From Podarcis vaucheri (Eukaryota): a stretch of 64,000 nt of DNA. The stretch lies in NCBI GenBank assembly GCA_965113315.1, contig OZ220368.1; one strand, written 5' to 3'. A program made the translations under genes and the position numbers. The notes beneath the pieces were generated by a model that worked only from the letters and a program-made list of their open reading frames with translations, made no database searches and was not told the DNA's origin. Below, piece by piece: positions 49,299-57,247 of the stretch (positions are counted from its first letter, which is position 1; every line of letters begins with the position of its first letter).

Positions 49299-49466
49299 CT
49301 ATTTATAAAATGATATTCTGCCTTCAACTGCTAGTCTCTCAATGAGTGCCAGTTCAAAAGTGGCATTGTGGACTCCAGTCCTGCGGAAAGCTCCAGCGTA
49401 CCGATTCTTTTCCCAGTAGTGGTGCCAGTTCCCTCTGCTGTCTGCGCCGAAACCAAATGCAGAGAC
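49299..49466 (-). CDS. ST3Gal last coding exon (motifs III and VS)
   Basis: [38 protein letters not shown]...ISFYK*. Confidence 0.93.
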
Positions 49467-54957: not shown

Positions 54958-57247
54958 AATTCCCCCCCAATAATTCCCCCCCAGGGACGCGGGTGGTGCT
55001 TTGGGTTAAACCACAGAGCCTAGGGCTTGCTGATCAGAAGATTGGTGGTTCGAATCCCTGCGACGGGGTGAGCTCCCGTCTTTCGGTCCCAGCTCCTGCC
55101 AACCTAGCAGTTCGAAAGCACATTAAAGTGCAAGTAGATAAATAGATACTGCTCCGACGGGAAGATAAATGGTGTTTCCGTGTGCTGTTCTGGTTCTCCA
55201 GAAGCGGCTTAGTTGTGCTGGCTACATGACCCAGAAGCTGTATGCCGGCTCCCTCGGCCAATAAAGCAAGATGAGCACCGCAACCCCAGAGTCGGCCACG
55301 ACTGGACCAAATGGTCAGGGGTTCCTTTACCTTTTATGTTGTTATGACCACCCTGGGCTCCTTGAAGAGGATGAGATATAATTATTTTTATTATTAATAA
55401 ATACTAACAGAGGACATTAAGGAAGGGGGTGCAGAACCTGCTTTCCAATAGCATATTTTTTATATCTAATAAATGGAACTGCCTGCTTAAACAGATCACA
55501 AAAGAGAAATATTTGATGGTACAATTGACTGACTGCAAACTATTCTGAATAGAGATACAGAACAAAGGCAAATATCTCTAGCGAGAATGCCTCATGCAAA
55601 GGTGGCTCCTGTGCTGTCAATCAGGAAAGCATTGTTCATGTGCTGTTACTGCTGCTTTTTTATCTCAGAAATGGAAGATGTTTCTGCTGGGTGGCTTCTC
55701 CCTGCCATGCAACTATGAAAGCACAGGATCTCACTTTGGGTAAAGCAGGTGGCCTCTGTACATCTCCCACCCAGTGGCTTTCCTGGTGCTGCAGCCAGGA
55801 CTCTTTCCTCCTTATTGAGAGACTCCTGGGTATATGTACAAGAGAGAGTTAATGGAGCTGGAAGGACTGCTTAAGATTGGTCAAACCAGCTGGCCAGATC
55901 GTCCTTTTGTTAGGGAAATTATGACCATGGGCTAAATGATGAGTAATGGTTGCTTTAATAAATAGTTATAAAGCAATAAATAGTGACTATATTTATTGAA
56001 TTTATATCCGTGTCTTCCTCCCAGAGTTGCTCAGGGAGACAGTTTGCTCGGCTAAATATTAGCAAATATCATAGCAGTGTAAAACACTGCAATAAATAAA
56101 AATGGTTTCCCAGAAAAACTGACCCGTGAGTCAACTTATCCTTCTAAGGTAAAGGGAAAAGGGAAAGGACCCCTTGGACGGTTAAGTCCAGTCAAAGGCA
56201 ACTGTGGGGTTGTGGTGCTCATCTCACTTTCAGGCCAAGGGAGCTGGTGTTTGTCCACAGACAGCTTTCCAGGTCATGTGGCGTGCATGACTAAACCGCT
56301 TTTGTCACAACAGAACACCATGACGGAAACCAGAGTGCACGGAAACGCCATCTAAGAAAGCCTGTAGTAATAGGAGAGACTTTGGTATCTGATGGTTGGA
56401 CTTCATTAATATTTTTTAATGTGATGCCCTGTGTGGGGCCAAAATTGGGCACCCCCAAATGGATCATCTCAGTTATGGATCTTCTCAATTTTGCGCCCCC
56501 TCAGCATAATGCCCTGTGGGGGGAAACTGCCTACACCACCCAAAAACCAGTGCTGATCTGATGAAATGTAGATAATGTCAGAGCCTGTTGAATTTCAATG
56601 GGCTGGACCTCCAGCACAGACAGGTGAAGGCTAGTGGCCTGAACAAATGCAGAGCAGGTAAAACATTTGCCAACTCTTCCTGCTCTGCATTTGGTGCTGC
56701 TATTCCTGTATGAGAGGGGAACTGCAGGACCATTTCTGGAGAAGGGACCCACCTCAAAGTAATTTACAGCAGCTGGCCTTGATGTTGGACCTCCTGGTGA
56801 AGTTGGGAGTTAAAAACAAAACAAACACCAAACAAAAAAAAGGCATGCAGTGCACTGCTGGAACTTCTGAGCACTCAAAGAAGTAAGGAGATGCTCTGTG
56901 TTTCATTTCGCTCAATGGACACAGCAGAGAGGAGCCTTTCTGCGTGTTTGTCATTAATTTGGTGCAACACTCACCAGCCACCACCGCAGAACCTCCGAGG
57001 GGACCTCTGGATTTCTAAGAGTCAGCAGGCAGTTTACTGAGGCATCAAAGTGATCACAAAACCAGTCCAACTTGCTATGCTCTGTGCACCTGTTCTGGCT
57101 GCACATCTTTCCCTCCCAGGGAGACTCCATCAGCAGCCATTCTCCAGAGGACGGCGAAGGGTCCATATACACAGCCTTGTAAACCTTCCAAAGGAAAAAC
57201 GCAAGGCAGAGGGCCAGGATGCACCACAGCTTTTTCCTGAACTGCAT
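49299..57247 (-). CDS. Beta-galactoside alpha-2,3-sialyltransferase of the ST3Gal I/II clade (GT29), 6 coding exons, 325 aa, intact; probably ST3GAL8
   Basis: Type II TM N-terminus; sialylmotif L ([29 protein letters not shown]), S (PSTG...C..V..FGF), III (HYWE), VS (HNATFE); exon sizes 273/191/180/46/120/168. Confidence 0.93.
50519..50638 (-). CDS. ST3Gal coding exon 5 (sialylmotif S)
   Basis: [40 protein letters not shown]. Confidence 0.93.
51025..51225 (+). mobile_element. SINE with L2-type tail (Squam3-like)
   Basis: GGTTCAAATCC B-box, ctcagcctaacccacctcacaggg core, ctggagctcctt...aaataata tail. Confidence 0.65.
51271..51772. mobile_element. Non-autonomous hAT element
   Basis: TIRs CAGTGGTTTTCAACC / GATTGAAAACCTCTG; TSD GCCTAATG/GCCTAACG. 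Confidence 0.85.
52386..52431 (-). CDS. ST3Gal coding exon 4 (46 nt)
   Basis: [21 protein letters not shown]. Confidence 0.92.
52778..53018 (+). mobile_element. CR1 LINE 3' fragment
   Basis: Encodes [19 protein letters not shown]...[12 protein letters not shown]; (TTCTATGA)n tail. Confidence 0.9.
53435..53614 (-). CDS. ST3Gal coding exon 3
   Basis: [27 protein letters not shown]...[13 protein letters not shown] acceptor. Confidence 0.92.
53993..54222. mobile_element. hAT MITE
   Basis: CAGGGGTAGGCAACC...GCTGACCCCTG; perfect TSD CCTTATGC. Confidence 0.85.
54684..54874 (-). CDS. ST3Gal coding exon 2 (sialylmotif L start)
   Basis: RLQGYQ...[36 protein letters not shown]. Confidence 0.93.
54891..54957. 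repeat. (GTT)n microsatellite, about 22 units
   Basis: Read directly from sequence. Confidence 0.97.
54984..55334 (+). mobile_element. Full-length Sauria SINE
   Basis: GGGACGCGGGTGG head, GGTTCGAATCC B-box, Sauria core, ACCTTT tail. Confidence 0.93.
56146..56352 (-). mobile_element. 5'-truncated Sauria SINE, older subfamily
   Basis: aaggtaaagg...ggacccc...catgactaaaccgctt...cacggaaacgcc is the reverse complement of the Sauria 3' half. Confidence 0.8.
56975..57247 (-). CDS. ST3Gal coding exon 1 (cytosolic tail, TM, stem)
   Basis: [20 protein letters not shown]...LRWWL|GTGAGT. Confidence 0.88.

Follow-up and report, generated by a model that had tools for sequence, protein, structure and literature searches.

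An intact st3gal8 sialyltransferase gene beside ERGIC3 in the lizard Podarcis vaucheri, with probable counterparts in mammals

Results and discussion

The window analysed here, a stretch of 64,000 nucleotides from the lizard Podarcis vaucheri (contig OZ220368.1 of assembly GCA_965113315.1), carries on its minus strand (57247-49299) a sialyltransferase gene of family GT29. Our analysis revealed that this gene is real and intact and that, by its place in the trees, it is the st3gal8 ohnologue, a third paralogue beside ST3GAL1 and ST3GAL2. Its product, ST3Gal VIII, is probably a Golgi alpha-2,3-sialyltransferase, which by analogy with ST3Gal I would transfer sialic acid from CMP-Neu5Ac to the Gal-beta1,3-GalNAc of O-glycans and perhaps also of gangliosides. 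The gene is of a known kind and lies in a known place: st3gal8 is the normal state in non-mammalian jawed vertebrates and no gain of the lizard, and the subfamily, lizard members included, has already been published. The present work adds one species to it and corrects the misleading name 'sialyltransferase 2-like', under which orthologues are entered in NCBI and UniRef. In importance the lizard gene is outweighed by a side result on mammals, for which loss of st3gal8 has been stated and in which related proteins were found.

ST3Gal VIII was defined in 2015 by Petit et al. (PMC4379398) in shark, fish, coelacanth, amphibians, chicken, Anolis, python and turtle, so that the enzyme originally announced as an extra one belongs to a described subfamily. 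The table of that paper gives 313-341 aa for full-length members, and st3gal8 orthologues are reported there as transcribed in zebrafish and chicken, with narrow expression in chicken.

Structure and identity of the gene

Six coding exons (Table 1), separated by five introns that all have GT..AG ends, join into a coding sequence of 978 nt, that is 325 codons and a TAG, with no internal stop, as the original prediction had it. Among 10000 base shuffles of this sequence none left an open frame. Pfam family PF00777 (Glyco_transf_29) matched above cut-off in four of the five exon-containing open reading frames (ORFs) scanned, with expectation values (E) from 9e-19 to 3e-12; the ORF of exon 1, which encodes the anchor and stem, gave no PF00777 match above cut-off in the same scan. 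The 46-nt exon 4 had the highest score among the frame-restoring candidates within its intron, an exon of this length occurs in all three paralogues, and the sizes of exons 3-5 (180/46/120) are identical in ST3GAL1 and ST3GAL2 of the same genome. Exon 3 is 98% identical to that of P. muralis, and the protein differs from the P. muralis RefSeq model XP_028590593 at 7 of 325 residues (97.8% identity). Identity to five lacertid models is 93.8-98.8%, and models of equal length, 325 aa, are found in Podarcis, Zootoca and Lacerta. Three Logan contigs of 1386-1799 bases carry whole orthologue frames of 313-333 aa, which implies spliced st3gal8 RNA in other species.

Table 1. Coding exons of st3gal8, given in 5' to 3' order, and neighbouring features of the window
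Feature	Position	Strand	Content and evidence
Coding exon 1, 273 nt	56975..57247	-	ATG, short basic tail, membrane anchor (residues 7-23), stem, start of catalytic domain
Coding exon 2, 191 nt	54684..54874	-	Q94, C126, C129, first half of sialylmotif L; PF00777 E 7e-16; splice sites
Coding exon 3, 180 nt	53435..53614	-	second half of motif L (N157, Y178), D200; PF00777 E 9e-19
Coding exon 4, 46 nt	52386..52431	-	Y217, putatively acceptor-binding by analogy; frame-restoring candidate
Coding exon 5, 120 nt	50519..50638	-	Y253, most of sialylmotif S (T256, C268); PF00777 E 3e-12
Coding exon 6, 168 nt	49299..49466	-	end of motif S, motif III (H286), lid, motif VS (H303, E308), stop; PF00777 E 1.5e-12
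Two candidate poly(A) signals (ATTAAA, 48770-48765 and 48708-48703)	48703..48770	-	sequence motif
ERGIC3-type gene	29934..48407	+	ERGIC_N E 7e-5 (below cut-off, 29-aa piece), COPIIcoated_ERV E 1e-8; start and stop
CEP250, 3' part	3632..28006 (left coordinate approximate)	+	CC_CEP250 E 1.6e-22, above cut-off; best Atlas match CP250; coiled-coil ORFs

Two upstream ATGs (57273 and 57304, minus strand) lie less than 60 bases from the st3gal8 start, and the nearer opens a four-codon frame that ends ahead of it. The microsatellite (GTT)19 at 54899-54955 ends about 24 bases from the acceptor of exon 2, where the pyrimidine tract is weak, and changes in its length might affect the splicing of that exon.

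A PF00777 scan of the genome gave 58 exon matches (68 candidates scored), among them those of two further loci, one on contig C27 and one on C26, whose exons are laid out like those of the window gene. Both are intact genes with six exons; their products have 343 and 347 aa and 47.3% and 50.2% identity to the window protein. In a tree of 58 proteins the first fell in the ST3GAL1 clade (100/98) and the second in the ST3GAL2 clade (100/100), while the window protein grouped with Podarcis and Zootoca (100/100), within a squamate clade that includes Anolis (100/99) and then within a sauropsid clade (100/98); its identity to the Anolis orthologue is 72.6%. Orthologues from fish to birds formed a clade of their own. 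When the window protein was forced into ST3GAL2 or ST3GAL1, approximately unbiased (AU) tests on a 27-row set rejected both placements (p 1.7e-5 and 4.0e-4). The assignment of the gene to ST3GAL8, apart from ST3GAL1 and ST3GAL2, is thereby borne out by the tree, the AU tests and the presence of the lizard's own ST3GAL1 and ST3GAL2 on other contigs.

Descent of the gene from ST3GAL2 or ST3GAL1 by a lizard duplication, which the database name and the 50% identity and common exon sizes with the lizard's own ST3GAL2 might suggest, has practically no chance of being true against these three results; the 58-protein tree and the AU tests rule it out, within the limits of the models. In the same tree a long lamprey branch weakly joined the mammalian rows (51/56); three smaller trees (28, 27 and 28 rows) were built with lamprey, two to three of the five outgroups and many redundant rows removed. 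The Latimeria protein P0376 was left unplaced in all four trees. Two GT29 loci on contig C10, considered as extra genes of group GR1 (ST3Gal I/II/VIII), have motif-level matches only and resemble another GT29 family. No second or remnant copy was found between CEP250 and ERGIC3 or in the 100 kb past the window (tblastn, 8 queries, 164 kb), where the three matches outside st3gal8 all had E above 0.3, and the genome scan with PF00777 likewise gave none there. Around the lizard's own ST3GAL2 (G000:C26, about 41.65-41.66 Mb), none of 64 ORFs in the downstream 10 kb had a Pfam match.

Protein anatomy and likely function

The window protein contains in one frame all four sialylmotifs, namely L (from C126), S (P254-G277), III (H286-E289) and VS (H303-E308), together with the GT29 hallmarks H303 and E308 of motif VS, H286 of motif III and the L-S cysteine pair C129/C268, whose bond is itself a prediction. 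Both this set of motifs with its catalytic histidine and the type II character of the enzyme had been named originally; for the latter, the hydropathy peak at residues 7-23 and a structural model point to a basic tail (1-6), an anchor (7-23), a flexible stem and a catalytic domain from about residue 49. The model, made with AlphaFold from a 55-row alignment, is that of P0124, a protein 98.8% identical to the window protein. It has a predicted local distance difference test score of 84, a helix at 2-27 and disorder at 29-47, and its best fold matches are structures of pig ST3Gal I (2WNB, E 6.5e-32; root-mean-square deviation 2.4-2.9 Å); the match to ST6GalNAc2 is far weaker (E 1e-18). By sequence, the window protein matches pig ST3Gal I with E 3.9e-90.

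Through the 2WNB alignment 29 reference positions were mapped (24 from PMC6884586, three from PMC4379398 and two added here), and 27 of them are identical in the window protein, the exceptions being human C61, replaced by Q51, and K312, replaced by R299. The positions S197, Y233 and W304 that mark group GR1 in PMC4379398 (pig numbering) are kept as S181, Y217 and W288, and N307 aligns with N291. The acceptor-binding positions Q94, Y178, Y217, Y253, D200, F297, R298 and V302 are the same as in ST3Gal1/2. Averaged over 56 non-mammalian orthologues, five of them lacertids, identity to the window residue is 98.9% at 19 reference sites, against 72.7% in the catalytic domain and 38.7% in the stem, a contrast used here as a stand-in for the ratio of nonsynonymous to synonymous substitutions.

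By analogy with human and pig ST3Gal1, catalysis would proceed as a single-displacement inversion, in which H303 would serve as the base that activates the 3-OH of galactose and H286 would help CMP to leave. The donor would be held by N134, S135, N157, Y178 and T256, the disaccharide by Q94, Y217 and Y253, and a C129-C268 disulfide may form as in the analogues; the expected product is Neu5Ac-alpha2,3-Gal-beta1,3-GalNAc.

Several points weigh against an enzyme of this activity. The human ST3Gal1 double mutant C61S/C139S is inactive (PMC6884586), and in the window protein the equivalent of C61 is Q51, its C139 partner being kept as C126. The sole N-glycosylation sequon (N304) follows directly after the catalytic H303. 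No ST3Gal VIII enzyme assay was found in the literature searched, which covered few subscription journals, so the description of the enzyme as little characterised stands; Gal-beta1,3-GalNAc, the acceptor given by Teppa et al. 2016 (PMC5000683), is likewise predicted, and no ST3Gal VIII construct was found in the passages of PMC6375257. ST3Gal VIII is reported to have changed fast in the sauropsid ancestor (PMC5000683), by which the specificity of the lizard enzyme may have shifted. Finally, the Anolis reference protein XP_003220523 (326 aa) was paired with the ST3Gal8 entry XM_003220475 (326 aa) in Table S1 of PMC4379398 by species, length and accession proximity only.

An intact gene yielding little or no active enzyme, owing to an unpaired C126, a glycan beside the catalytic histidine or a lack of expression, would fit the missing C61 equivalent, the sequon at N304 and the two upstream ATGs. 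We regard it as improbable against an active site that is near-invariant over the 56 orthologues, a pattern unexpected for an inactive gene, and against the equal length of the models in Podarcis, Zootoca and Lacerta. The three-disulfide pattern of ST3Gal1/2 (C59-C64, C61-C139, C142-C281) is not found in the window protein; it defines ST3Gal1/2 and not ST3Gal VIII. The C61 equivalent is missing in 17 of 23 squamate, 16 of 17 bird and one of five turtle or tuatara ST3GAL8 proteins, C126 is kept in all of them, and squamates have gained the stem cysteines C64 (23/23) and C73 (20/23). With C126 kept and these cysteines new, rewiring of the stem disulfides in squamates appears likelier than their loss. 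In most bird ST3GAL8 proteins one stem cysteine is left, and the N304 sequon is present in Podarcis and in none of the Anolis, turtle, bird and axolotl rows.

An active enzyme that in reptiles and birds has come to prefer other acceptors or donors, for instance particular glycolipids or mucins, and that is not redundant with ST3GAL1/2, is a possibility that we hold to be rather unlikely. The retention of st3gal8 beside two paralogues in fish, amphibians, reptiles and birds, the accelerated change in the sauropsid stem (PMC5000683), the apparent rewiring of stem cysteines and the narrow expression in chicken (PMC4379398) speak for it; the identity of all known acceptor-binding positions with those of ST3Gal1/2 speaks against it. 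Sialylation of Gal-beta1,3-GalNAc by ST3Gal VIII stays the preferred reading. The lizard protein is a clean candidate for an assay and offers a natural way to learn whether the stem disulfide that human ST3Gal1 needs is replaceable.

ST3GAL8-like proteins in mammals

Loss of st3gal8 in mammals is stated in three papers: PMC4379398 calls it 'notably absent in mammals' except for traces in gorilla, PMC5000683 describes a human pseudogene, ST3GAL8P (ENSG00000242507), suggests inactivation in the mammalian ancestor and argues from it, and PMC10225777 repeats the loss. Our results make the absence from mammals, which the original prediction had also assumed, doubtful, as monotreme and placental proteins group with ST3GAL8. 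All of these are predicted database models, the monotreme ones with biased composition and the placental ones on a long branch. No title or beginning of an abstract was found that reports retention of ST3GAL8 in mammals (searches for sialyltransferase with platypus, echidna or C20orf173, with few subscription journals covered).

The search of 50%-identity representatives yielded a mouse lemur protein of 334 aa, whose 24 best matches among the proteins collected here are all ST3GAL8-type. As a query it gave 44 matches among 900 candidates, 38 of them mammalian or mammal-like and six fish or fish-like, two of the fish proteins being named 'sialyltransferase 8'; the named matches included no marsupial, mouse or rat. 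Of the 27 tabulated positions, 25 are conserved in the echidna protein XP_038606015 (306 aa), and XP_028905378 (307 aa), presumably from platypus, is 88% identical to it, belongs to the same cluster and has the same motifs; both retain all four sialylmotifs and the full active site. Long frames that extend from motif L as far as VS were seen in tamandua, sloth, armadillo, elephant (partial), horse, donkey, deer, dog, hyena, bat, tree shrew and mouse lemur, while the models of Panthera, cattle, narwhal, chimpanzee and human show truncations, frameshifts or deletions. The ST3Gal1 positions C139, C142, N147, S148, C281, H299, Y300, W301 and E321 are kept in all 14 placental rows, and the catalytic H316 is kept in ten and missing in four. 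All 14 rows have T269L and lack F310 and R311, S194 and D213 are kept in none, and the lid of the placental proteins carries a short deletion. Both the dog and the horse protein are present on Logan contigs, one horse form being 376 aa on a contig of 1343 bases, which implies spliced transcripts.

In four gene models (golden mole, banteng, sheep) a divergent paralogue of the N-terminal half is fused to an ST3GAL8-like gene, indicating a tandem pair at the mammalian locus, and in the two fusion models tested this half was closest to placental proteins. This half is presumably C20orf173 proper, in line with the NCBI name of P0436. The mammalian locus, judged from these models, seems to hold two tandem derivatives and not a single remnant, so that the earlier equation of C20orf173 with the st3gal8 remnant holds in part: a Sceloporus orthologue is named 'C20orf173 homolog' by NCBI, but two derivatives are likely and the remnant described in PMC5000683 is ST3GAL8P. 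In the genome of P. vaucheri the tamandua protein as a query gave 15 weak exon matches that did not set the st3gal8 locus apart, exon 5 of the window gene being tied with ST3GAL2. Human C20orf173 presumably lies between CEP250 and ERGIC3, and if so the mammalian copies are one gene over from the lizard position.

Echidna alone fell within the ST3GAL8 clade (97/92) in a 28-row tree, and in two trees of 27 and 28 rows the monotreme and placental proteins formed one clade (94/94; 98/96) that joined ST3GAL8 (98/93; 98/94). Joining this mammalian clade to ST3GAL2 or ST3GAL1 was rejected narrowly (p 0.029 and 0.044) in tests that were picked after the first tree had been seen. Two placements within the ST3GAL8 clade went unrejected, one as sister to sauropsids (p 0.18), the other outside every non-mammalian ST3GAL8 protein (p 0.38). 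The long placental branch, the biased monotreme composition, a first tree of 58 rows in which the link to ST3GAL8 was not resolved and the predicted nature of the models make it possible that the mammalian proteins are an older separate paralogue and not ST3GAL8.

We nonetheless consider it likely that monotremes keep st3gal8. With less assurance we favour the wider view that the gene was not lost in the mammalian ancestor: it would have stayed canonical in monotremes, changed fast and duplicated in tandem in the placental stem, survived full-length and transcribed in some placentals with a remodelled acceptor site, and been lost again in others. On that view the placental stem would account for about 1.8 changes per site, and the tandem duplication would have produced the C20orf173-type half gene. 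A full-length sialyltransferase-like protein would survive in xenarthrans, horses, deer and dogs with the CMP-binding core and catalytic histidine kept and the acceptor site remodelled, and the histidine or the frame would have been lost again in primates, cattle and big cats. Were monotremes intact and many placentals remodelled, the list of mammalian sialyltransferases would be longer than stated and C20orf173 would gain an evolutionary origin. The intact lizard enzyme might then serve as a control of the ancestral type, with which an as yet unrecognised GT29 protein of mammals, its specificity changed or abandoned, could be compared.

Gene neighbourhood and further features of the window

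The neighbourhood of CEP250 and ERGIC3, in which the gene had been placed, is the right locus, but the gene lies past ERGIC3 and not between the two. It is convergent with the ERGIC3-type gene, tail to tail, with 891 bases between the stop codons. Predicted poly(A) signals of opposite strands overlap at 48765-48773 (AATAAA, plus strand, 48768, for ERGIC3; ATTAAA, minus strand, 48770, for st3gal8), so the 3' ends of the two genes may overlap. On the minus strand of the next 100 kb past the window lie an ASAP-type ArfGAP gene (ArfGAP-ankyrin match to 1DCQ, E 1.5e-9; SH3 also found), a ferlin gene and a copine gene. The names ERGIC3 (not ERGIC2), FER1L4 and CPNE1 are presumed here from synteny, the data supporting them at family level.

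The lizard order CEP250-ERGIC3-st3gal8-ASAP-ferlin-copine agrees with the published chicken locus, which further supports the identification of the gene as st3gal8. In Fig. S2C of PMC4379398 the chicken order reads cpne1-asap1-st3gal8-ergic3-cep250 and the zebrafish order ergic3-st3gal8-asap1-cpne1, the columns being taken from the page layout and possibly off. The ASAP-family gene between st3gal8 and the ferlin spans L031-L034 (G000:C25, 75.646-75.675 Mb). The published figure has asap1 at the locus in chicken and zebrafish and not at that place in mouse and human (PMC4379398), and this neighbour may be a fourth ASAP paralogue missing from mouse and human.

Repeats were also observed. Intron 3 of st3gal8 contains at 52778-53019 the 3' fragment of an element like a long interspersed nuclear element (LINE), presumably CR1; its copies in the next 100 kb are 98.8-99.4% identical, suggesting recent mobility. 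Copies of a short interspersed repeat, presumably a Sauria SINE (short interspersed nuclear element), lie at 54984-55334, 56155-56330 and 6194-6421 and are 74-89% alike. A GC-rich interspersed repeat of 1.4 kb in a CEP250 intron (7792-9171), with a 93% copy 65 kb away (L031:8593-10000), resembles a CpG island with long ORFs. A 108-base direct repeat (96%) at 63041-63148 and 63718-63825 encloses about 570 bases. The broken frames at 2041-2945 (minus strand) near the window start are, to judge by their motifs, LINE reverse-transcriptase-like.

Comparison with known sialyltransferases

With pig and human ST3Gal I (2WNB, 2WNF, 2WML) the window protein shares its predicted fold, 45% of the residues in the structural alignment and the 27 of 29 reference positions, and lizard st3gal8 has six coding exons like the lizard's own ST3GAL1. 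It is nevertheless a separate ohnologue, without the C61 partner of C139, with K312 changed to R and with two extra stem cysteines. With the lizard's own ST3Gal II it shares 50.2% identity, exon phases and motif residues, but clade and contig are separate, and ST3GAL2 is far more conserved than ST3GAL8 in the 58-protein tree. The placental proteins named C20orf173 or 'sialyltransferase 1/2-like' group with ST3GAL8, but have 39-42% identity to the lizard protein. With the ST3Gal VIII subfamily as described in PMC4379398 and PMC5000683, the window gene shares the clade, the neighbours and, at 325 aa, the size range of 313-341 aa; the species alone differs.

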